From: Arenicellales bacterium
Lineage (GTDB): Bacteria; Pseudomonadota; Gammaproteobacteria; Arenicellales; JAJDZL01
NCBI GenBank assembly: GCA_963664525.1
Contig: OY761535.1
Location: 2,456,082 to 2,520,081, forward strand
Length of the DNA: 64,000 nt
Direction of reading: 5' to 3'
Shown: one piece after another, positions 1-15,309 of the stretch
How positions within the stretch are numbered: the first letter of the stretch is position 1
Layout: every line of letters starts with the position of its first letter
Position numbers and translations under genes: made by a program
The notes under the pieces: model-generated
Seen by the model: only the letters and a program-made list of their open reading frames with translations
Databases searched by the model: none
Told to the model about the DNA's origin: nothing

Positions 1-123
1 TTCGAACGGTCTGCTTGTTCCTGCAACACTGTCCTGCGCCAATACATTGGCTCGAACGGTCAATAATCCGATCAATAAGAGCAGTGCGATGACAACTCTA
101 CTTAATGTAACCTGTTTATTCAT
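1..123 (-). CDS. 5' part of an exported protein, possibly an ABC-type substrate-binding protein; runs off the window edge
   Basis: Not in the ORF track. ATG at 123 overlaps the end of the upstream MFS gene (ATGAATAA). It reads MNKQVTLSRVVIALLLLIGLLTVRANVLAQDSVAGTSRPFE..., a Sec-type signal peptide, and stays open to position 1. Confidence 0.6.
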   Translation of the reverse strand, partial: MNKQVTLSRVVIALLLLIGLLTVRANVLAQDSVAGTSRPFE

Positions 124-2290
124 TCGTCAGTCCCATCTCAGATTCTTCACCCTGGCGCATCGCAGACAGATTTGTCAGCACAAAAAGGGAAATCAAGCCA
201 ACCAGTATCACACCGAATCCAACAATTGCGCCTTGATATCCGAATCCAGAGATCAGGGCGACTGCAATCAGCGGACCGAATACCATACCCAAGCGCTCAC
301 ATAGACGATAGGCGCCGACAACAGAAGCCCGTCCAAGCGTGTGTTCGTATCGTTGAGCAACCTGCTGAATGATAGAATTTTGTGAAGTCAACGTCAATGC
401 GTGACCCACGCCAAGCGAACAGATTGCCAAGGCAACCGCGTACGACGCATCGCCAAACAAGTTTGAAAAATATGCACCGATGCAACCGAATCCTGCTATG
501 GCAGTACCTAAGGCCACCATTGTTCCGTACTTCTCGGTACGGTCAGCATAACGTGCAGCAAAGGTCAGACAAATCAGTGTCAAAATTCCATAGAGCATCA
601 AAATCCGGCCGATGGAGGACTGGTTGTGGCCAAGTTCATTCAGATACAGCGGAACCAGGTACGCAATAAAACCGGCAACCATCATTTTCCCTGGTATTGC
701 GGCAAACAAGAGGACCGATACAAAGCGGATATCTTTCAGTAATGTGAGCCAGCCCTTGGCACCCAGAATCAATGCGGGTCGCGTACTGTTTGATTTTGGT
801 TTTTCCGGCTGCAAATTGCTGACGCGAAACACCTGATAAATGATCAATCCGGAAACTGTTGCCAGTGCTGCAGAAAGCAAAAATGTTGCTTCAAAGCCAA
901 AACGATCTGCAAAAATTCCACCGATTGGTGGACCGCAGATAATTCCTGCAAATACAGCCGCGACAAACACACCCGTCGCAGACGCCCGACTGAATCGTTT
1001 GGCATTTTGTGTAACCCAGCCTTCTGAAGCAATGAATACGAGCCCGTATCCGATTCCGGTCAAGATTCGATAAGCCACCAGATCATAGTAACTCTGCGTG
1101 TAAAAGTTGCCAATAAAGCCGACCACTGCAGCGGCGATTCCGACCATGAAGACGCGCCGTACACCAACCCGATCAACAAATCCACCACCCAGTGGCGTGG
1201 CAATCATCGCCGCCACCATGAACAGCGTGATCGGCAAACCGATCAGAAATTCGCTGGAAACCATCAGGTCCGTTGGAGCGTAGCGCTGAACGAATAGCGG
1301 CAAAAATGAGCGTGACAGTTCTTCGGAGAATATGAACAGAAAAAGTGGTACTCTGATGCGATCCGGTGCCTTCACCTGCAATGCCTCACCTCTTTCGAAG
1401 CGATAGCGGCTGTCGATATTCTTGTGTACGTCGGAGATTTTGTTTGCGATCTCACCTTGGATTTGCGCATTTTGGGTTTCACGCACATCGAAAACAAAGT
1501 CGTTATACCGGTGGCGCAAATTTTGCAGTGTCCGATTGAAACTTGAAGTCAGTTGGCCAATTTCATCGCTGCTGCGAACCAGCAGCCAAGAGGAAAATTT
1601 TCCTCGCGCACCTTCAGACATCGCACGCAATATCGTCTCCATCGGCTTTTCTACTCGAGCGACCGAAAAGAACAGCAAGAATTCAAAGGTTACAAGCCAG
1701 CAAATGATGACGATGGTGATGATTTCCCAGAAGACTTCACGCAGGTGGCTGCGTATACGATTACTGCTGACACCAACATGCAACACACTATCGTCTTGTT
1801 GCGCACCTTGTACAGTAAAGACACCAACGATGTACTCGTCCATCGCGTGCCCGAACTGTTCTTGCTCAATTTCCCTCATCGCCAGGTTCTGCAAGATGGT
1901 ATCCAATTCGTCCCGTGAAACCCCACTGACAAAAAGAACTTCACCGTCGGTATCGATCAGAGTCAGGTACTTGATATCATCGTTGTTCGCTAAAACACTT
2001 TGAAAATATTCGTTCATACCGACCAATTCATTGGCAGGAATCGCAAGTTCCCCGGTGGCATAAGACAACTGATCAGATAGTGCATGTCCGACTGCACTTG
2101 CTTTTTGGTGCAATTGTGGCTCGAGTTCTCGCTCAAAACCATCAAGAGAAAACCACGAGACTGCAGACTGACCTAGAACCAAAACAAAAACCGCCAGCAA
2201 AACCAGACTCACCAGCAATTTTCGCTGGTCTTGTCGAAACACCTGCTGTGCCGCTTTACTGTGGCTTTTCTTGCTGGTATTAGTGTTCAC
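116..2290 (-). CDS. Fusion of an N-terminal TM-periplasmic sensor-TM-HAMP region to a C-terminal MFS transporter
   Basis: TM1 LLVSLVLLAVFVLVLG; Cache-like DIKYLTLIDTDGEVLFVS; TM2; HAMP-like KPMETILRAMSEGARGKF...RSSDEIGQLTSSFN. About 12 further TMs carry MFS motif A (GGFVDRVGVRR), GPPIGGIFADRFG and ARYADRTEK. Confidence 0.85.
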   Translation of the reverse strand: MNTNTSKKSHSKAAQQVFRQDQRKLLVSLVLLAVFVLVLGQSAVSWFSLDGFERELEPQLHQKASAVGHALSDQLSYATGELAIPANELVGMNEYFQSVLANNDDIKYLTLIDTDGEVLFVSGVSRDELDTILQNLAMREIEQEQFGHAMDEYIVGVFTVQGAQQDDSVLHVGVSSNRIRSHLREVFWEIITIVIICWLVTFEFLLFFSVARVEKPMETILRAMSEGARGKFSSWLLVRSSDEIGQLTSSFNRTLQNLRHRYNDFVFDVRETQNAQIQGEIANKISDVHKNIDSRYRFERGEALQVKAPDRIRVPLFLFIFSEELSRSFLPLFVQRYAPTDLMVSSEFLIGLPITLFMVAAMIATPLGGGFVDRVGVRRVFMVGIAAAVVGFIGNFYTQSYYDLVAYRILTGIGYGLVFIASEGWVTQNAKRFSRASATGVFVAAVFAGIICGPPIGGIFADRFGFEATFLLSAALATVSGLIIYQVFRVSNLQPEKPKSNSTRPALILGAKGWLTLLKDIRFVSVLLFAAIPGKMMVAGFIAYLVPLYLNELGHNQSSIGRILMLYGILTLICLTFAARYADRTEKYGTMVALGTAIAGFGCIGAYFSNLFGDASYAVALAICSLGVGHALTLTSQNSIIQQVAQRYEHTLGRASVVGAYRLCERLGMVFGPLIAVALISGFGYQGAIVGFGVILVGLISLFVLTNLSAMRQGEESEMGLTNE

Positions 2291-3075
2291 GCGGTTTCCT
2301 CGTCCAATCGACGAAGCTCGCCGACCGCTGAATCGAGCGAGTCCATCGCACCGAATACCGCGCCGGAGAACTCTTCAAACTCAGGATGTCTCGCGTTGGC
2401 TTCGAGCAGGCTTTCGCTGTCGCGGCGCCGTTCACTGATATCTGCCAAAGCTTCGCTCATAATCTTCCAGTCCTGAAAATGTCCCCGGAGCAGCGTCGTG
2501 CAACCCAGCACACTGAGCAAAGTGACCACAATTGCGACAATTCCAACAATCAGCGTCAATCGTTCCAACTGCTGAGCAACGCTTTGGTCAAGAAAATAAC
2601 GTGAATAACGAAGTGCGATCGCACCAACATTCTGGTTCAAGTTGTTTTGCAGGCCAACACCGACGACACCTGCGTCATTTTCCAGCATCGACCAGGAAGC
2701 GGATTTGTTGCGATTGACTTGCCAGGCAAAAATCCAGTTTTCAGCGATCAGATCGCCGATAAAACTGGGGTCGGTACTGAAAATTACGGTCCCGGATTCA
2801 TCAAAAATTTCGATAGAGAGAATCTGCTCGTCATTGAGCAAGAGCGAGTCCAACTCGTCGTTGATATTTTCAAGGTTGACCAGTGCCAAGCCCAAATCCA
2901 TTTGAGTTTCAATTCGGGCACGCAGATCATTTGCAACGAACTCAAACCGGGAAGTCAAAAGATCAGCGAGTGTGCGTTCGTATTTGTGCAAACTCAATAC
3001 ACTGGTTAAGACCGTGCCTGCAACAAGTGTCAGCGCGAGCACCAGCGCAATCCGGTAAGCGAAACCAAGTTTCAC
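2287..3075 (-). CDS. Membrane protein with TM-periplasmic Cache-like domain-TM and a degenerate HAMP-like tail; no output domain
   Basis: Two TM segments flank QILSIEIFDESGTVIFST, which parallels the sensor part of the downstream fusion. Its stop overlaps the next start (GTGA). Confidence 0.7.
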   Translation of the reverse strand: MKLGFAYRIALVLALTLVAGTVLTSVLSLHKYERTLADLLTSRFEFVANDLRARIETQMDLGLALVNLENINDELDSLLLNDEQILSIEIFDESGTVIFSTDPSFIGDLIAENWIFAWQVNRNKSASWSMLENDAGVVGVGLQNNLNQNVGAIALRYSRYFLDQSVAQQLERLTLIVGIVAIVVTLLSVLGCTTLLRGHFQDWKIMSEALADISERRRDSESLLEANARHPEFEEFSGAVFGAMDSLDSAVGELRRLDEETA

Positions 3076-3231
3076 TTAATGACGCCTCCTAGCCGTAATA
3101 TCTGTTCTTTGGTTTAGTTGATGCAACACAAATGGGAGCAAGCGAGAAACCGTTCCTTTTTTATTTCTTGCGATTATAAGTTTTTCTCAAGCCACTCACA
3201 TTCAATCTGAAACCAGTTTTACCAGAGTGTG

Positions 3232-5427
3232 CTAACTGCGCGGGCTGAATGATTGCCATGTTCCTTTAAGACCTGTTTGACCCACGCCGGGCTTGTTCCA
3301 GTCACATACCCCTGCGGAAAAGATTTGGCGGAGGCGGTTCCTTTCCCCCGGAAGAAAGGCTACAGCGTAATCAGTTAAGTCTACCGGTTTGAGCTGACAC
3401 TTTACGATGTCACCTGCTAGGGGCGCCCCGGCAACCTCGCGCGGTGATGGCGGTGACGGGTACAATAAATTACATTTACCCGAATCACGTTGCTGCGTTT
3501 CAACGATTTTCACCGGTTTTTCATTACGAGACCAACACGCATCGGTCAACTCTTCGGGCTTAGCCTGCGCCAATTTGTCTGGCAATGTTTTCACAGAATC
3601 GTCTACGGCCAAGGCTTGCAGCCATTGGTCCATATAACGCAGAGCACTGCGAAGCAACGGACTTTCCATGTTATAGAGACCGTAGCGATAGTCCTCCACG
3701 AGCATGATGTGGTTGTCAATTCGCCCGTTTGCCTTGCGCAAACGCTCACGCATGGAAAACGAGTGGTATCGTGTATGCACGTCTCCGGTTTCAAGATCGT
3801 CGCTGTAGGCTCGGTAGTCGATGATGGGCGTATGCGCAAGTCCTCCTCCCCCACTGGTCAATCGGCCGGTCTCATACGCGATCCGCACTGCTTCCAGATC
3901 CGCCACAGTACGGTTCGGTTGAAATTGCCCATCGCTGTCGTATCCACCAATTTTCTCGTTCAGGTCCAGAAACTGGGCAGGGCTGATCACGCCATCGTTG
4001 AGAGCCAGAAGACCATACTGTACTCCGACATTATCAAGCGGGCGGCGGACAAACCCGGTCATTGAATTTCGCCCATACACATTCACATAATGCTCAAACA
4101 CCTCGCATCTCGCACCGGTCGGGTTGTCCTTCGGGTGATACCGCAACGATTGCGGCAAAACATCGGGGCAAAATTCGCCGATGGTAATTCTTCCGGCTTT
4201 GTGGGATACATTGGGCATCGTTTCCCAAACCAGAAAACCGGCAACTGCCTTTTGCTGTTCTTTGGTGAAAAGACCGACGCCCTCGTTCTTAAAGTAGCGG
4301 TTCAACAGCCTGGCATCGGTAATCATCGAAACTGTGCTAAAGCCGACTTCAGGAAAGCTACACCCGGGAATAATCCCGTCGAGCAAGCCCGGATAATTGT
4401 CTGCGGTCTGGTGTGCCTGGTATGAGCCGCCAGAACAGCCCATGCCAATGGTATAAAGCGGCACGCCATATCCCTCAATAAAACGCTCTTTGACCATCAT
4501 TGTGGTCTCGGCAGCCAACACATCATTGCAATTGTTGCCGAACACGTTGAGAGTTGAAGAAGCAATTGCGTAGCCCAGACCGAGCATCCACGGGTCTGTG
4601 ACGCCGCCGGTGCGGGCACCCTGGCGAAACCAGCCGTTCACGCAACCGCCGCCGAAGGTGTATATCAAGCGGCCATTCCAGCCTTTGGTAGAAGTCCATG
4701 GATCCGGCTCATCGTCGGTACTCGGATCCTGCAGCATCGCAATCTGGTAGATGGCACGGTTAAGGGTGCCAGTCTCAATCCGAACGATGAACGGTACCGT
4801 TGCACCGGTCACTGTGGTTGTGGTCGCGATATCCTCGGGTCTGACATTCGGGTCAACCAGCGCTTTCATTTTTCCATCCAAGATGGAGCGATAGGCGTAA
4901 TCTATACGGTGCCTGATGGAGCAGGCCTCGTCGAGCGACTGACCCAAGGTCTCACCCGACACCAGCAAAAATGCATCCGTTTCGCAGATGAACGGCTGTT
5001 GCTGTGGTCCGGAAAAGACAGGACCCGTGGCGGGATAGTTCCTGAATGGTAGGGAATCCAACGTTCTGCCGTCGGAGTCTGTAAGCCTGAAAGTTCCAAT
5101 CTCCGGGAGATTGTTCACCAATCCCGATCGAATACCTGAAGATGTCATAGGAAACGACGAGGTCACCTCCATTGCATCAAGGAACACCCGAATGGCGGAC
5201 AGATCATGCTCAGCTGCAGCTGATATTCCGACCAAAGCATCTGCGCCGGTGACCATGTCAGGCCGACTCGACAGTAGCTGGATCTCATACGCACTGTCGA
5301 ATAAATCTTCACCTCGCGCAATACCAGCTACGAAGGCAGATAGAATACCCAGGATTAGAATGATCTTCGCAATATTGCGACTAATTTTTCCTGATTCGCA
5401 ATCTTCCATTGTGCCATTTCCAAGCAT
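3232..5427 (-). CDS. Exported DUF6351-like (tannase/feruloyl-esterase-like) alpha/beta hydrolase
   Basis: N-terminal hydrophobic signal; LSSRPDMVTGADAL start; WNGRLIYTFGGGC; nucleophile elbow GCSGGS; RRPLDNVGVQYGL; Cys-rich C-terminus (KCQLKP, GVCDW). Confidence 0.75.
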   Translation of the reverse strand: MLGNGTMEDCESGKISRNIAKIILILGILSAFVAGIARGEDLFDSAYEIQLLSSRPDMVTGADALVGISAAAEHDLSAIRVFLDAMEVTSSFPMTSSGIRSGLVNNLPEIGTFRLTDSDGRTLDSLPFRNYPATGPVFSGPQQQPFICETDAFLLVSGETLGQSLDEACSIRHRIDYAYRSILDGKMKALVDPNVRPEDIATTTTVTGATVPFIVRIETGTLNRAIYQIAMLQDPSTDDEPDPWTSTKGWNGRLIYTFGGGCVNGWFRQGARTGGVTDPWMLGLGYAIASSTLNVFGNNCNDVLAAETTMMVKERFIEGYGVPLYTIGMGCSGGSYQAHQTADNYPGLLDGIIPGCSFPEVGFSTVSMITDARLLNRYFKNEGVGLFTKEQQKAVAGFLVWETMPNVSHKAGRITIGEFCPDVLPQSLRYHPKDNPTGARCEVFEHYVNVYGRNSMTGFVRRPLDNVGVQYGLLALNDGVISPAQFLDLNEKIGGYDSDGQFQPNRTVADLEAVRIAYETGRLTSGGGGLAHTPIIDYRAYSDDLETGDVHTRYHSFSMRERLRKANGRIDNHIMLVEDYRYGLYNMESPLLRSALRYMDQWLQALAVDDSVKTLPDKLAQAKPEELTDACWSRNEKPVKIVETQQRDSGKCNLLYPSPPSPREVAGAPLAGDIVKCQLKPVDLTDYAVAFLPGERNRLRQIFSAGVCDWNKPGVGQTGLKGTWQSFSPRS

Positions 5428-5688: not shown

Positions 5689-6810
5689 TCAATTGATTTT
5701 ACGGTACAGGCACGTCGTAGGCCCACCAGCCAGCGCACCGTATAGAGGCTCATGTTGCGAGTCTCTCCACTGACGCATTTTTTCCGATACAGGATGGTCC
5801 GGGAATTGACTGATAAATAATTCAGACCAGGCGAGGTGCCGCGTTCCTGAACTTCTAGTTCTGATCAGTTTGGTCTGCTTCTTTTCAAAAAGCTGATCCC
5901 ATAACCATTCCACGCCATCGACAATGGTACCTTTCTTGGGTGCATATTCGAATACATCGTCGTAGCCTGACCGATGAAGAATAAATGCCGATGCGAGCGC
6001 TGTCTGGTAAGTCATATTCGGATAGTAGACATGGTCTTTCTTTTTTGCCCAAAACCGCCAGATGCGATCTTTACCACGTTTGCCGACACTGAGCATTGAT
6101 TTTTTGTAGTACTTCAGTGCAGTTTCCAGAATTTCATGGTTTCCAGTCGCATTGCCCCAATGGGCATACCCTGTTGCCTGCAAACCACGTCGATCAACGC
6201 CTTTGGTTTTCCCTCCAAAAGAATTTTTCTTATTGACTGTCGTTTCGTAAATTGAATCGCCCCAATTTTTAACAGCTTCAATCAGATTTGTATCGTCAGG
6301 ATATTCTGTTTTCAATATCAAATATGCGTGTGCCACTGGCCCTAGAAATGCACCAAGCTGAAAATACGGCTCGTTATAGGCATTGTAGGAAGACGGCAGT
6401 TCTTTTGGTTTATAGGGTTGGACGTCTGAGAAAGCGTTAATGCGCACCGCTTCAGCAAGTACTTCCCGAATTTCTTCCGCGGCGAAAGTGGACCCGCGGT
6501 AGTAGTTTTCCACCAACAAATAAATGGCGTGTCCCGCCATCTGGACATTCGATTCTTGCCACTGTAGATGCCCGGTAATGACAGCCTGTTTGCTTAACTT
6601 GATGAGCGTAATCCTAGACCCACAATATTTCGACCGCTCGTAGCTAGACAATGATGCGATTTCATTCTTCCTTGCTTGAACATCGATAAATGGCTCAATA
6701 GACGTTTGCTCAGCACTGGTTGCAGCATGCAGGTTTGCAGTGTTGAATGAAACGGCTACCAAGACTGCTGTCAAAAGAAAGGTTGAAAATTTGTGCGAAA
6801 AGATCTTCAT
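5689..6810 (-). CDS. Exported protein, possibly alginate-lyase-like (alpha/alpha toroid)
   Basis: Signal peptide (FLLTAVLVAVSFNTANLHA). The helical C-terminal half, YYPNMTYQTALASAFILHRSGYDDVF...GTIVDGVEWL, resembles alginate-lyase-family helices. The canonical NNH motif is not seen. Confidence 0.4.
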   Translation of the reverse strand: MKIFSHKFSTFLLTAVLVAVSFNTANLHAATSAEQTSIEPFIDVQARKNEIASLSSYERSKYCGSRITLIKLSKQAVITGHLQWQESNVQMAGHAIYLLVENYYRGSTFAAEEIREVLAEAVRINAFSDVQPYKPKELPSSYNAYNEPYFQLGAFLGPVAHAYLILKTEYPDDTNLIEAVKNWGDSIYETTVNKKNSFGGKTKGVDRRGLQATGYAHWGNATGNHEILETALKYYKKSMLSVGKRGKDRIWRFWAKKKDHVYYPNMTYQTALASAFILHRSGYDDVFEYAPKKGTIVDGVEWLWDQLFEKKQTKLIRTRSSGTRHLAWSELFISQFPDHPVSEKMRQWRDSQHEPLYGALAGGPTTCLYRKIN

Positions 6811-7234
6811 GGAAACTCCTAGCCAAGTCGTGATTTCGAAATAGGAATTGTGTCAAGACTCAATACATTGTAATTGAAAAGAATTCAGCCTTTTTTTTCA
6901 ACTTTTGGAGTGGTATTCCTATTAGCACTGGTGCTTGCCTAGTCAATCGTTGAGGCGGTGGTGCGATCATGCAGCCCAAGTCAGTGCATCTTATCTGAAC
7001 GGAACTTGGCTGACTGAAATTCAACATTTTGATCAGCCACATCGCGAGGCATAATGGATGGGGTGTGAACTTGCAGGCCCATTCAGCGACCTGTTGCACT
7101 GGAACAAGGTCTGGCGAACAAATACATTCGTTAGAATCGTAGCCTGCAATTTTAATACTTTTCGAACATATGGATGATTGACTGACAATCACAGATGGTT
7201 GTCATCGACCGTCGTACAGTTTTGTCGCGCAGAA

Positions 7235-7909
7235 ATGATCGGGATCATTAAACTCAATACTAACTTTCCCCGCTTGCCGGGAGATATTGGCAATGAAAAT
7301 TCGTTTGCCCTACCCGTCGAGTATGAAACTGTCGAGTCAGCAACAGTCGATTGTGTCGTCAGTGATCAACCGCCATCTGATTTACTGATCCAGAAATTCA
7401 TCGAAGCTGCAAAGCGACTTGAACAAGAAGGCGCTGTCGTGATTGGTACAAGTTGCGGTTTCTTGTCTTCGACACAGACATTGCTGCAAAATGCCGTGGC
7501 GGTTCCTGTGTTGACATCCTCTTTAATCCTGATTCCGACGTTACGATCATTTTTTGGGGAAAACGTCAAAATCGCGGTGTTGACCTTTGATGAACTGACG
7601 CTTTCTTCAAAGCATTTGCTGGTCGATTCTGACCAGAATATTGTCATTCACGGTTTGCCGAAAAAAGGACACCTGTACAAATGCATCAAGGACGATCAGG
7701 CGACGCTCGATCCACATGCTGCCTTACGCGAAGTGTTGGAATGCGCGAACTCGGCTATTGCAAAACACAGTGATCTTGATCTTTTTTTGTTAGAGTGCAC
7801 CAACCTTTCCCCATACAAGATGGAAATTAGACAGCACTTGGAAAAACCTGTTTTTGACCTTGTCGATGCGCTGCTTTGGGTCGCAGGTGCAAGTGGCGTT
7901 ACTCGCTAG
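7235..7909 (+). CDS. Aspartate/glutamate/hydantoin racemase family protein
   Basis: IGIIKLNTNFPRLPGDIGN and both catalytic Cys motifs (TSCGF, LECTNL). ATG 7235 is preferred to the ORF-track TTG at 7178. Confidence 0.85.
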   Translation: MIGIIKLNTNFPRLPGDIGNENSFALPVEYETVESATVDCVVSDQPPSDLLIQKFIEAAKRLEQEGAVVIGTSCGFLSSTQTLLQNAVAVPVLTSSLILIPTLRSFFGENVKIAVLTFDELTLSSKHLLVDSDQNIVIHGLPKKGHLYKCIKDDQATLDPHAALREVLECANSAIAKHSDLDLFLLECTNLSPYKMEIRQHLEKPVFDLVDALLWVAGASGVTR

Positions 7910-7913
7910 CGGC

Positions 7914-9212
7914 TCAACCTTGCATCATTACGCTGGGCAGATAGGTGGCCAATTCCGGGAATACCAGTAAAACGCAAACTGCGACGATCATCAAAAGAAA
8001 CATTGGCGCTGCCGCACGGGCAATGAACGCCATATCTTTGCCTGTCATGTCCTGAAGAACAAACAGGTTAAATCCAACGGGCGGTGTAATCTGGGCCATC
8101 TCAACGGCAACCATCAAGAATATGCCAAACCAAATCATGTCAAATCCAGCGTTTCTAGCCATTGGCTCGATCACCGCCATAGTCAAAACTACGGATGAAA
8201 TTCCGTCGAGAAAGCAACCCAGAACGATATAAAACGCCAGAAGTGCGAAAATCAGCATCCACGGCGAGAGGGACAGTTCACCGATCCATTCTGCCAATGT
8301 GCGAGGCAAGCCGGTAAATCCCATGGTCAAAGAAAGAAATGTTGAACCGGCGAGAATAAATGCAATCATGGCTGAGGTGCGGGTCGCCCCCATCAAAGCG
8401 GTCATAAACGTTTCGCGAGTCAAAGACCCCTGCAATCCAGAGATCACCAAGGCACCAATAACACCGAGAACAGCCGCTTCTGTCGCAGTTGCAAGTCCCA
8501 AATATATCGAACCCATCACCCCAACTATCAAAAGTACAACCGGTATCAGTTGCACGACATCTTTCATATCACCGGTTTGATCGGCAATGTTCTCGATTTT
8601 GCGTTTTTTTGTAACCACACCCCAAATGGTTACATACCCCATAAACAACAGTGCAAGCATTATGCCGGGCAAGATTCCGGCAATGAACAACTGCGCAATC
8701 GACTCATTGACGGTGATTCCATAGATGATCAACGTAATTGACGGTGGTATCAGTAAGCCTAGCGTCCCCGCTCCAGCCAAGGTGCCGATGATCATGTTTT
8801 CAGGATATTTCCTGGCGCGCAGTTCCGGAATCGACATTTTGCCAACAGTGGCAACTGTCGCAGCGGAAGAACCCGATATCGCAGCAAAGACGGTACAACC
8901 TGCAATATTGACGTGTAACAGCCCTCCAGGCAATCGCCATAAGATCGGAGATAAGCCTTTGAACAGATTCTCAGAAAGCTTGGTGCGAAACAAAATCTCG
9001 CCCATCCAAATAAACAGCGGCAATGCCGTTAGAGTCCAACTGGATGCCCCACCCCAAATTGTGGTTGCCATTGCGTCCCCAACCGGGCGATCGGTAAATA
9101 AGAGCATGCCGATCCACGCAACACCGATCAAACTCATTCCAATCCATACGCCTGATCCTAGCAGCAGGAATAGTACAAACAAGAAGATGAGAATCAGGCT
9201 AAGCTCTTCCAT
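7914..9212 (-). CDS. dctM: TRAP transporter large permease
   Basis: LTALPLFIWMGEIL, FAAISGSSAAT, GTLGLLIPPSI, ATATEAA, ITPPVGFNLFV. Confidence 0.95.
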   Translation of the reverse strand: MEELSLILIFLFVLFLLLGSGVWIGMSLIGVAWIGMLLFTDRPVGDAMATTIWGGASSWTLTALPLFIWMGEILFRTKLSENLFKGLSPILWRLPGGLLHVNIAGCTVFAAISGSSAATVATVGKMSIPELRARKYPENMIIGTLAGAGTLGLLIPPSITLIIYGITVNESIAQLFIAGILPGIMLALLFMGYVTIWGVVTKKRKIENIADQTGDMKDVVQLIPVVLLIVGVMGSIYLGLATATEAAVLGVIGALVISGLQGSLTRETFMTALMGATRTSAMIAFILAGSTFLSLTMGFTGLPRTLAEWIGELSLSPWMLIFALLAFYIVLGCFLDGISSVVLTMAVIEPMARNAGFDMIWFGIFLMVAVEMAQITPPVGFNLFVLQDMTGKDMAFIARAAAPMFLLMIVAVCVLLVFPELATYLPSVMMQG

Positions 9213-13470: not shown

Positions 13471-15102
13471 ATGGACAGAAATATTTACGAACAACATCTG
13501 GATAAAAATCCAGCCAATTACCATTCCTTAACCCCAATCAGTTTTTTGGAGCGCGCCTCTCGGGTATTTCCTAACAAAACTGCTGTTGTTCACGGGAATT
13601 CAAGCTACTGTTACGCCGAACTGTATTCACGTTGTCGTCGACTTGCGAGTGCTCTTGAGAAAAGAGGTATCAACATTGGCGACACGGTTGCCATAATGGC
13701 CCCAAATACGCCAGCCATGTTGGAAGCCCACTATGGCGTGCCAATGTGTGGTGCCGTGCTGAATGCATTGAATTATCGATTGGACGCAGCAGCGATTGCT
13801 TTCATTCTTGAACACGGCGAAGCCAAAGTCTTGCTGACCGACCGTGAATTTTCCCCAGTTATCAAAGATGCACTCGAACGGTATGACGGGTCAATCGTAG
13901 TCATTGATATCGACGACCCCTACGCAGATGGTGGAGAACTGATCGGAGAAACGGATTATGAATCCCTATTGAAAGAGGGCGAGCCCGATTATGAATGGCG
14001 AGTTCCGGATGACGAGTGGCAGGCAATTTGCCTCAACTACACCTCTGGAACCACGGGTAACCCCAAGGGAGTCGTGTTTCATCACCGTGGTGCCTATCTT
14101 AACGCACTTGGAAATGCGCTGGTTTTTCAGTTGGACAATCGCAGTGTTTATCTTTGGACTTTGCCGATGTTTCATTGCAATGGATGGACGTTCACGTGGG
14201 CGGTAACTGCCGTCTGTGCGACACACGTCTGTCTTCGCAAGGTTGATCCTGCTTATATTTTTCCGTCCATCCGGAATAATCACGTAACCCACATGTGTGG
14301 TGCGCCGATTGTATTGAATTTGCTGGTTCATGCGCCAACAGAACAAAAAATTGAATTCGACCAGGTCGTTGAAGTTGCAACGGGCGGTGCCGCACCGCCT
14401 AGCCAAGTCATTGCTGAAATGGAGAAACTCGGCTTTCGAGTAACCCATCTATATGGTTTGACGGAGACCTATGGCCCAACCACAGTCTGCGCATGGCAGG
14501 AAAATTGGGAGGGCATGTCCTTGGAGGAACGAGCAGCAAAAATGGCCAGACAAGGAGTGGGATATCCGACGATTGAAGAGGTTCGGGTGATCGACCCTGA
14601 AACCATGAAAGCAGTACCGCACGACGGAACAACGATGGGCGAATTGATGGTGCGAGGCAACACCGTCATGCGAGGCTATCTAAAAAACGCTGATGCAAGT
14701 GAACAAGCATTCGCTGGCGGCTGGTATCACACCGGGGACCTGGGAGTAACTCATGAAGACGGCTACATCGAAGTGCGCGATCGCTCCAAAGACATCATCA
14801 TTTCCGGCGGGGAGAACGTCTCAAGTCTCGAAGTGGAGGATGTACTGTATCGGCATCCTCGCATCATGGAAGCGGCGGTCGTCGCCAAACCGGACGAAAA
14901 ATGGGGAGAGACGCCGTGTGCGTTTGTCACAATTGCTCCGGGTCAGGAAAACTTATTGACACAAGAAGAGGTCATTGATTGGTGTCGACAAAATCTTGCG
15001 CGGTACAAAGTACCTAAAACTGTCGTGTTTGGATCGTTACCGAAAACCTCAACGGGCAAAATTCAAAAATTTGTTTTGCGTGATCAAGCCAAGGCACTAT
15101 GA
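13471..15102 (+). CDS. Acyl-CoA synthetase / AMP-dependent ligase (short/medium-chain, DmdB/AAE-like subfamily)
   Basis: LNYTSGTTGNPKG, YLWTLPMFHCNGW, YGLTET, WYHTGDL, DRSKDIIISGGEN, PKTSTGKIQK. ATG 13471 preferred. Confidence 0.92.
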   Translation: MDRNIYEQHLDKNPANYHSLTPISFLERASRVFPNKTAVVHGNSSYCYAELYSRCRRLASALEKRGINIGDTVAIMAPNTPAMLEAHYGVPMCGAVLNALNYRLDAAAIAFILEHGEAKVLLTDREFSPVIKDALERYDGSIVVIDIDDPYADGGELIGETDYESLLKEGEPDYEWRVPDDEWQAICLNYTSGTTGNPKGVVFHHRGAYLNALGNALVFQLDNRSVYLWTLPMFHCNGWTFTWAVTAVCATHVCLRKVDPAYIFPSIRNNHVTHMCGAPIVLNLLVHAPTEQKIEFDQVVEVATGGAAPPSQVIAEMEKLGFRVTHLYGLTETYGPTTVCAWQENWEGMSLEERAAKMARQGVGYPTIEEVRVIDPETMKAVPHDGTTMGELMVRGNTVMRGYLKNADASEQAFAGGWYHTGDLGVTHEDGYIEVRDRSKDIIISGGENVSSLEVEDVLYRHPRIMEAAVVAKPDEKWGETPCAFVTIAPGQENLLTQEEVIDWCRQNLARYKVPKTVVFGSLPKTSTGKIQKFVLRDQAKAL

Positions 15103-15309
15103 GAATCGTACCCTAAATTTACCGGAATCGACTTTTGCGCGACCGTTAAATGCGTGACAAAATTCCGAATCAGAATCCTAAAACGGCTGTACGAATTATT
15201 TCGAATTCAAAAGACACAGCTGAAATGGCCTGCGAAATCAACTTGACAATGTTTCGCAAAATGTCTTGAAACGAGTTGTGACATTCAAGCGTTGATGATC
15301 GAGATTATT

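Follow-up and report, generated by a model that had tools for sequence, protein, structure and literature searches.

HAMP receptors drive kinases, cyclases, phosphatases and chemotaxis arrays; can a transporter take the same output position? The question is raised by a gene at the beginning of a 64,000-nt stretch of the genome of an Arenicellales bacterium (the window, G000:C1:2456082-2520081), which encodes a 724-aa protein joining a receptor-like input to a carrier of the major facilitator superfamily (MFS). A 262-aa sensor with no output of its own (S262) is encoded immediately upstream, and all genes of this finding are located on the minus strand. An initial annotation, made from the sequence alone, had proposed that the two proteins form a heterodimeric receptor that switches transport. 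Taking the evidence as a whole, the best explanation, which we hold with moderate confidence, is a heteromeric receptor-transporter unit assisted by a solute-binding protein (SBP) and provided with a partner-switching half.

The 724-aa chain and its parts map as follows, TM standing for transmembrane helix and AF2 for the AlphaFold2 model:

116..2290, minus strand: gene of the 724-aa sensor-HAMP-MFS fusion (open reading frame, ORF; Pfam, alignment, AF2)
about 2150-2218 and about 1664-1732, minus strand: TM1 and TM2, flanking the Cache-like domain (boundaries approximate)
1733..2149 (approximate), minus strand: periplasmic alpha/beta (Cache-like) domain, about residues 48-186 (AF2 secondary structure)
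1514..1648, minus strand: HAMP, residues 215-259 (Pfam PF00672)
1343..1513, minus strand: conserved post-HAMP helices and linker, residues 260-316 (alignment, AF2)
128..1342, minus strand: 12-helix MFS domain, DHA1-like, residues 317-721 (MFS_1, Foldseek)

Pfam and the AF2 model together gave the order TM, Cache-like domain, TM, HAMP, 12-helix MFS. MFS_1 (PF07690) matched residues 317-647 (E 3.7e-41), HAMP passed marginally (E 1.8e-5; 25.4 bits against a gathering score of 25.0), and no kinase, cyclase or methyl-accepting chemotaxis protein domain was found in the Pfam scan of the protein, as the initial annotation had read it. Two relatives gave HAMP scores of 39.9 bits (P0328) and 26.6 bits (P0258). 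Neither window protein scored above the cut-off of the Cache profiles; P0258, a distant relative of the long chain, reached 30.9 bits with sCache_3_2 (cut-off 28.4), so that this fusion passes both sCache_3_2 and HAMP.

An alignment of 22 family members was conserved along the whole length of the protein, the periplasmic part included. Invariant residues were located in HAMP (P216, D242, E243 and G245), in the post-HAMP segment (Y262, D264, F265, E271, A275, Q276 and I277) and in the helix entering the MFS domain (I312, R313 and P315, followed by the conserved E323, E324 and R327). The AF2 monomer, with a predicted local distance difference test score (pLDDT) of 68.7, placed post-HAMP helices at 241-274 and 279-295, was of low confidence at 291-307, and was helical over residues 309-721, the MFS region reaching about 70-87. 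The best Foldseek matches of the MFS domain were VMAT1/2, VAChT, NorA, MdfA, YajR and DgoT, with TM-scores normalised to the target (TMt) of about 0.7-0.84. Three MFS segments are kept in the family: GGGxxDRxGxRR after the second MFS helix, the Arg in YRxLxGxGYG, and CGPxxGG, which we take to be MFS motifs A and B and the antiporter motif C.

A word-index search with the 724-aa protein yielded 266 matches, the best 120 of which were examined. PF07690 was present in 120/120 of them, mostly in proteins of 687-747 aa and with a coverage above 90%; PF00672 was on record for 29/120, and the only source names were "MFS transporter" and "MFS family permease/HAMP domain-containing protein". When residues 1-310, the sensor-HAMP part alone, were used as query in an exhaustive HMMER search of representatives, 1155 matched at E<=1e-3 and 211 at E<=1e-10. 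Among the best 150 representative matches an MFS domain was found in 116, of which 108 were at least 600 aa long; of those without it, 22 had at most 330 aa and 12 were longer. Pfam analysis of 10 sampled matches identified nine MFS_1 fusions and one hybrid histidine kinase (P0360, sCache_3_2-HAMP). Since 116/150 of the best representatives carry the MFS domain, the fusion is not an artefact of assembly or chance, an outcome for which the initial annotation had allowed, but is real, ancient and common. One sensor-MFS relative, P0260 (1117 aa), has an additional C-terminal DUF5939 after the MFS domain.

The upstream gene maps as follows:

2287..3075, minus strand: 262-aa output-less sensor (S262), with TM1, a Cache/PDC-like periplasmic domain, TM2 and a cytoplasmic hairpin
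2290-2490, minus strand: cytoplasmic helical hairpin of S262, about residues 196-262 (AF2)

The S262 stop codon and the start codon of the 724-aa protein share 4 nt (GTGA). No Pfam or NCBIfam match was obtained for the 262-aa protein. Its AF2 model (pLDDT 81.9) consisted of a helix (5-60), an alpha/beta part (71-158), a second helix (160-214) and a hairpin (221-261), which bears out the coupled, output-less TM-sensor-TM protein described in the initial annotation. The first Foldseek match of S262 was the model of WalK (E 3.8e-10; TM-score normalised to the query, TMq, 0.71 over 284 columns); the WalK extracellular domain was matched with a TMt of 0.72, and the sensor domains of DctB, KinD, CitA and Tlp3 were found as well. 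A PDB sequence search with the S262 profile returned chance RNase H matches only. The family comprised 133 matches, the best 120 of which were strongly conserved proteins of 239-304 aa, and weak dCache_1 matches were obtained for 14 of 24 members (best E 1.1e-5).

Comparison of the two families by hhalign aligned S262 residues 1-102 with residues 21-123 of the 724-aa protein (Prob 93.4, E 2.5e-7) and brought together the motif pair QILSIEIFDESGTVIFST / DIKYLTLIDTDGEVLFVS. Because the N-termini are aligned with both motifs included, S262 is, on this profile evidence, a true paralogue of the long-chain input; this holds at least as far as TM1 and the N-terminal half of the sensor are concerned. 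The paralogy was revealed by profile comparison alone: with BLASTP, the 262-aa protein showed no significant match to the 724-aa protein, nor to an 863-aa PP2C protein encoded farther downstream. A three-way paralogy with the PP2C family is not claimed, the hhalign match of S262 with that family being weak (Prob 27).

S262 is single-copy in this genome. Its profile found a strong match only in G000, the genome of the window, among 300 genomes across the class, the next one being a 917-aa frame at E 1.1e-13. Within the order, 30/151 genomes matched at E<=1e-10, including 22/22 other genomes of the same genus.

Do the two proteins act as one receptor? Seven of the best 150 representatives, 846-1005 aa long, were Rosetta-stone fusions that join a 262-like module to a separate sensor-HAMP part and an MFS domain. 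The 262-like module of the seven was recognised in a profile scan at E 4e-33 to 8e-15, and hhalign gave Prob 98.7 for P0278, 96.4 for P0277 and 97.0 for the protein of a distant locus, L095. A word-index search for longer fused forms of S262 had returned none, which is weak evidence; it was the later profile scan that found the fusions. Natural fusion is a classical sign that separately encoded partners act as one unit, and the three-part proteins imply one MFS domain per pair of sensors.

A complex of the full-length 724-aa and 262-aa chains was modelled, each with its own family alignment. The three runs had interface scores (ipSAE) of 0.61, 0.61 and 0.60, whereas none of three controls scored above 0.00; in calibration, the mark was reached by 58/80 solved complexes and by 2/110 mismatched pairs, counts that hold only roughly with the alignments used here. 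At least 95% of contacts agreed among the runs, and the pLDDT of the partner was 76. The modelled interface comprises a TM bundle, in which TM1 and TM2 of both chains take part (chain 1 residues 25-70 and 178-213 with chain 2 residues 4-50 and 165-214), a HAMP layer (long-chain 221-262 against short-chain 199-261) and the post-HAMP helix (long-chain 265-298 against the last helix of S262). The S262 tail, a helix-loop-helix in the AF2 model, thus packs on the partner HAMP in the complex model and is HAMP-like by shape only.

The wider distribution of the pair was explored with a contig scan using the family alignment. The scan gave 126 pattern matches and 106 confirmed relatives, and the best 80 of these 106 were taken as loci. 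Most are from metagenome-assembled genomes (MAGs) of Arenicellales, other Gammaproteobacteria, Rhodospirillales, Paracoccaceae, Magnetospirillum and "Poriferihabitaceae", with identities down to 29%. Genes were counted by position with tblastn, the denominators being the loci with enough flank:

directly upstream, same strand: 262-aa gene, 75/77 loci
directly downstream: PF04392 gene, 76/79 loci
downstream: PP2C gene, 73/76 loci (missing in L073, L076 and L078)
downstream: alpha/beta hydrolase gene, 52/75 loci
downstream: histidine phosphatase gene, 50/75 loci
anywhere in the locus: STAS gene, 58/80
anywhere in the locus: Amt gene, 44/80
anywhere in the locus: SulP gene, 15/80

In line with the initial proposal, the view that the 262-aa and 724-aa proteins work as one, probably heterodimeric, receptor unit is supported by their pairing in 75/77 loci, the paralogous N-termini, the three-part fusions and the score of the complex model relative to its controls.

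The pair also appears to duplicate as a pair. According to the ORF maps, the PP2C and kinase genes of L038 and L042 are immediately followed by a second, inverted pair of 262-like and MFS genes; L050 is laid out similarly, except that the ORF at the MFS position falls outside the MFS cluster. In L038 and L050 the best PF04392 match is located farther downstream, at about 33% identity.

The gene that follows the MFS gene begins at the edge of the window:

1..123, continuing on the flank L002 at 15123..14077, minus strand: 5' part of the gene encoding the PF04392 solute-binding protein (348 aa, with signal peptide)

Its ATG at window 123..121 creates an 8-nt overlap with the end of the MFS gene, ATGAATAA. 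The product, an exported protein noticed but not identified in the initial annotation, is a 348-aa ABC_sub_bind protein (PF04392, E 8.1e-20). As its gene adjoins the MFS gene in 76/79 of these loci and in 8/8 more distant ones (see below), the protein is supported as a solute-binding protein tied to the receptor-transporter unit.

Solute-binding proteins with a non-ABC membrane partner are known from TRAP and TTT transporters and from LuxP/LuxQ and TorT/TorS. The locus might accordingly encode a new SBP-dependent secondary transporter, in which the PF04392 protein delivers substrate to the MFS domain as in TRAP and TTT, the paired periplasmic domains are a docking platform, HAMP is a latch, structural or allosteric, and the two downstream hydrolases, both cytoplasmic, process what is imported. 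The adjacency of MFS and SBP genes, the most constant feature of all, would fit such a transporter, as would the lack of any ABC permease or ATPase seen in the cassette and the presence of the hydrolase and the histidine phosphatase in the proportions given above. So would the PF04392 structures listed in Table 1 of PMC10443332, which bind L-Trp, L-Tyr and L-Phe; by analogy, aromatic amino acids may be taken as a lead to the ligand, and as a lead only. However, the presumed antiporter-like motif and the DHA1-like fold suggest export; HAMP is a signalling module, needless for docking; the hydrolases are absent from about one third of the loci; and relatives embedded in type VI secretion system (T6SS) clusters occur without such enzymes. 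We regard this explanation as improbable, and pure nutrient uptake as the least likely role. The locus shares with TRAP, TTT, LuxP/LuxQ and TorT/TorS an SBP gene beside a non-ABC membrane partner, but differs in combining a PF04392 protein with an MFS carrier, two Cache-like domains and HAMP. A TRAP or TTT system would have a DctP or TctC binding protein with DctQM or TctAB; in the present locus, a PF04392 protein stands in the place of the former and an MFS_1 carrier in that of the latter.

Reading on beyond position 1 on the flank, which the initial annotation had recommended, disclosed genes that it had not mentioned. The SBP gene is followed by those of the 863-aa PP2C/kinase protein, a 374-aa alpha/beta hydrolase and a 212-aa His_Phos_1 protein, the successive spacings from SBP to His_Phos_1 in this six-gene operon being 34 nt, 11 nt and a 68-nt overlap. 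The 863-aa protein contains HAMP (E 1.8e-8), SpoIIE-type PP2C (E 6.5e-51) and HATPase_c_2 (E 9.3e-18) domains; its dCache_3 match was weak and below the cut-off (E 0.0083). The invariant Asp residues of PP2C are visible in the family alignment, and the NCBIfam matches in this signalling half included SiaA, RssB and RsbW. In 18 loci a separate ORF cluster comes after HAMP-PP2C, and the one member checked with Pfam was HATPase_c_2.

An Amt gene of the marine subtype (518 bits with TIGR03644) is convergent to the operon. At a distance of 68 nt it is followed by the gene of a 110-aa STAS protein (PF01740, E 3.1e-22; TIGR00377, 81.6 bits against a cut-off of 53.45). YISSAGLR is invariant in 14/14 sequences of the STAS family; its Ser is presumably the phospho-site, after SpoIIAA. 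Since the 863-aa protein is the only SpoIIE match of this genome and its only HATPase_c_2 match above the cut-off, the STAS protein, encoded about 2 kb away, would be its obvious substrate. No sigma factor was found among the scanned neighbour ORFs of L002; the genome as a whole was not searched for sigma factors. As the operon runs on into dCache-HAMP-PP2C-HATPase_c_2 and two hydrolases, with STAS nearby, the receptor-transporter unit would be part of a partner-switching signalling cassette.

Amt followed by STAS, in the place of glnK, is located at L002 7767-9586 (G000:C1:2449034-2450652), just outside the window; the combination of Amt and STAS is met again near the cassette in other loci. 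The genome has three Amt genes, and its only P-II gene adjoins another of them, at G000:C1:2999292-3000935. Between Amt-STAS and a SulP-STAS transporter gene, a DDE_Tnp_1_4 transposase gene is split into ORFs of 127 aa and 415 aa (L002 6008-7678). This looks like an insertion sequence acquired in this genome, because SulP comes directly after Amt in close relatives such as L003. Two loci have a Formyl_trans_N-like gene of about 290 aa between the SBP and PP2C genes (L070 7517-8413; L081 7808-8662), and in Rhodospirillales-type cassettes with this insert both hydrolase genes are absent. In distant Rhodospirillales-type loci, STAS is located 3' of the PP2C gene on the same strand.

More distant relatives were sought with P0258 across the phylum: 8/401 sampled genomes, G000 included, matched at E<=1e-40, and eight loci from seven of those genomes were studied. 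A PF04392 gene adjoined in 8/8, PP2C was present in 4/8 and STAS in 1/8. A separate 262-like gene was detected by tblastn in 5/8, and a sixth by profile, a 267-aa ORF in L092 (Prob 96.6 over 245 columns). That leaves L095 and L099, two loci of one genus whose proteins are 855-860 aa long, that of L095 having the 262-like N-terminus mentioned above.

The genomic context of these proteins differs from that in the window. In L095 (215-19861; genome G594), the 855-aa three-part fusion and the SBP lie within a complete T6SS cluster, with overlapping gene ends, and so do their counterparts in L099 (genome G790), where the long protein is a putative fusion of this kind; the order in L095 is TssC, TssE, TssF, TssG, ClpV, fusion, SBP, an SBP_bac_3-like ORF, Fha, TssJ, TssK, TssL, TssM. 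Neither PpkA nor PppA was seen in the 20 kb of the T6SS-embedded locus. L092 (8145-14773; genome G681) has VgrG-like and DUF6931 genes directly after a set made up of the 262-like gene, a gene for a 712-aa sensor-MFS protein and the PF04392 gene; a response-regulator/histidine-kinase hybrid is encoded upstream.

These contexts bear on the direction in which a signal would run. Carriers act as input or co-sensor in the transporter-sensor pairs and fusions UhpC/UhpB, DctA/DcuS, CbrA-type SSS-kinase and Amt-kinase. The MFS domain could likewise be a transceptor or co-sensor that senses substrate or flux and, with S262 and the SBP, modulates the PP2C-kinase laterally, as in UhpC/UhpB or DctA/DcuS; the real output would then be the phosphorylation state of STAS, or T6SS assembly in the distant relatives. 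This would be consistent with the operon shared with the PP2C-kinase in 73/76 loci, with the position of distant relatives between clpV and fha in a complete T6SS, a slot usual for regulators, with VgrG adjoining the unit of L092, and with the recurrence of the unit in differing signalling contexts. Yet HAMP precedes the MFS domain in the chain, which is the usual order from input to output; the MFS domain retains the conserved segments of active carriers; and the unit occurs without PP2C in L073, L076, L078 and 4/8 distant loci. We consider a transceptor possible but unlikely, although the relatives embedded in T6SS clusters strengthen the case for it. As in the known pairs, a protein of carrier fold would belong to a signalling pathway, but here a Cache-TM-HAMP input precedes the transporter in the same chain.

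We return to the receptor-transporter unit with the carrier at its output. A signal running from the paired periplasmic domains by way of HAMP into the carrier is favoured, because the domain order runs that way and the junction is strongly conserved. The 262-aa and 724-aa chains would form one heteromeric membrane unit, with two paralogous Cache-like periplasmic domains atop a four-helix TM bundle. Below the membrane, HAMP of the long chain is predicted to pair with the HAMP-like hairpin of S262, and a single DHA1-like MFS domain would hang off the long chain via the conserved post-HAMP helices. The PF04392 protein would be an obligate partner, most likely docking, loaded with ligand, on the paired sensors. 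Travelling down the bundle and across HAMP, the signal would reach the MFS domain and set its transport or conformational state. The second half of the operon, dCache-HAMP-PP2C-HATPase_c_2 together with STAS, would be a partner-switching module, accompanied by the alpha/beta hydrolase and the histidine phosphatase. Because the unit and the phosphatase/kinase are halves of one operon, they may read or act on the same extracellular cue, and the unit may be coupled to STAS phosphorylation.

Several observations weigh against this mechanism. The pLDDT of the monomer model is below 50 at HAMP (210-252) and in the pre-MFS segment 291-307, so that any mechanical coupling of HAMP to the MFS domain is hypothetical, and the HAMP match of the window's 724-aa protein is barely over its cut-off, as given above. 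In the S262 tail, HAMP was found in 0/24 family members at E<=1. The complex model may pass its controls through likeness to solved homodimeric receptors. If its conserved segments are indeed antiporter-type motifs, export or H+ antiport is a likelier role for the carrier than import fed by an SBP. The PP2C gene is missing in 3/76 close and 4/8 distant loci, which makes the partner-switching link frequent rather than obligatory. The loci are mostly MAGs, many of them close kin, so that the counts overstate the number of independent events; the pattern still spans classes.

The nearest known relatives of each part place the unit among familiar systems. With WalK and sCache-HAMP kinase inputs it shares TM1, a PDC/Cache-like domain, TM2 and HAMP; it has, in contrast to them, no DHp/CA kinase, the MFS domain occupying the output position of the long chain and nothing that of S262, and its dimer is apparently of two different chains. 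As reported in bioRxiv 10.64898/2026.05.25.727664, an output-less Cache_heme-HAMP receptor binds a Ser/Thr kinase, and so also combines a periplasmic Cache domain and HAMP with a separate Ser/Thr phospho-signalling enzyme. According to the same source, that receptor is a homodimer with haem, and its PknB-like kinase is bound via helical repeats, whereas in the present system a paralogous HAMP-MFS chain takes the partner's place, and the phospho-enzyme belongs to the PP2C/RsbW type.

Like partner-switching systems, the signalling half combines a SpoIIE-type PP2C with a HATPase_c_2 kinase and with a STAS protein of one domain, in which the Ser motif is conserved. Such systems include RsbU/RsbV/RsbW, SiaABCD and fused forms such as Rv1364c. 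The present one differs in that a membrane dCache-HAMP sensor precedes the fused phosphatase and kinase, that the scanned neighbours include no sigma factor or other target, that the STAS gene comes after an Amt gene, and that the module shares its operon with a binding protein and a receptor-MFS unit.

A literature search, judged at the level of titles and abstract openings, found no description of a Cache/sensor-HAMP-MFS architecture. In the main text of a census of Cache domains (PMC4822843), no transporter output is named, "transporter", "MFS" and "major facilitator" each occurring 0 times. We file the system as known parts in a new arrangement and as a new output class for HAMP receptors. 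A carrier as HAMP output, if true, would add direct control of membrane transport at the level of the receptor. Obligate heterodimeric receptors of bacteria have few candidates, and the strict pairing with an output-less paralogue, together with the three-part fusions, makes the unit a well-supported one. Going further, we suggest only tentatively that it belongs to an unrecognised class of receptor-coupled transporters, in which a classical two-chain receptor has the carrier as its output. As a portable device for signal input, it would set, by way of the PP2C/kinase of its operon, the phosphorylation state of a STAS protein that in turn would control the adjacent marine-type Amt, in the place that GlnK has for AmtB, and in other bacteria it would license T6SS. 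The family is large (the 211 representatives at E<=1e-10). Because it is met with two kinds of downstream machinery, both partner switching and T6SS, the characterisation of a single member would provide an annotation for many genomes, those of abundant uncultured Arenicellales among them.

On the upstream side of the cassette the window contains the following:

3076..3231, minus strand: AT-rich gap of 156 nt, with AGGAGG 8 nt before the GTG start of S262
3232..5427, minus strand: DUF6351 tannase-like exported protein (Pfam E 2.5e-236)
5689-6810, minus strand: 373-aa exported protein with a sub-threshold Alginate_lyase match (22.0 bits against 22.2)

In its full form, the scheme of the initial annotation included the DUF6351 protein, which would release a ligand that the exported protein presents to a heterodimer gating the transporter. 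The gene is adjacent, on the same strand, and its product is exported. However, 0/80 related loci hold a homologue, which makes DUF6351 a bystander and led us to reject it as a component of the system; the closest relatives have other genes upstream instead (an acyl-CoA ligase-like gene, a multicopper oxidase gene and a 113-aa ORF); and the 156-nt gap, with its own ribosome-binding site, separates DUF6351 from the cassette. Of the neighbourhood linkages anticipated in the initial annotation, those of the sensor twin and the binding protein were found and that of DUF6351 was not, and the scheme with all its parts is very unlikely. Judging from its sequence, the gap is probably where transcription of the cassette as a separate unit begins; a promoter and terminator scan of the region was uninformative. 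The alginate-lyase-like neighbour was likewise found near the cassette in 0/80 loci. Farther upstream, at window 7914-9212 (minus strand), a 432-aa multi-pass membrane ORF resembles, by eye, a TRAP-type large permease, and a 243-aa ORF lies beside it at 7178-7909 (plus strand).

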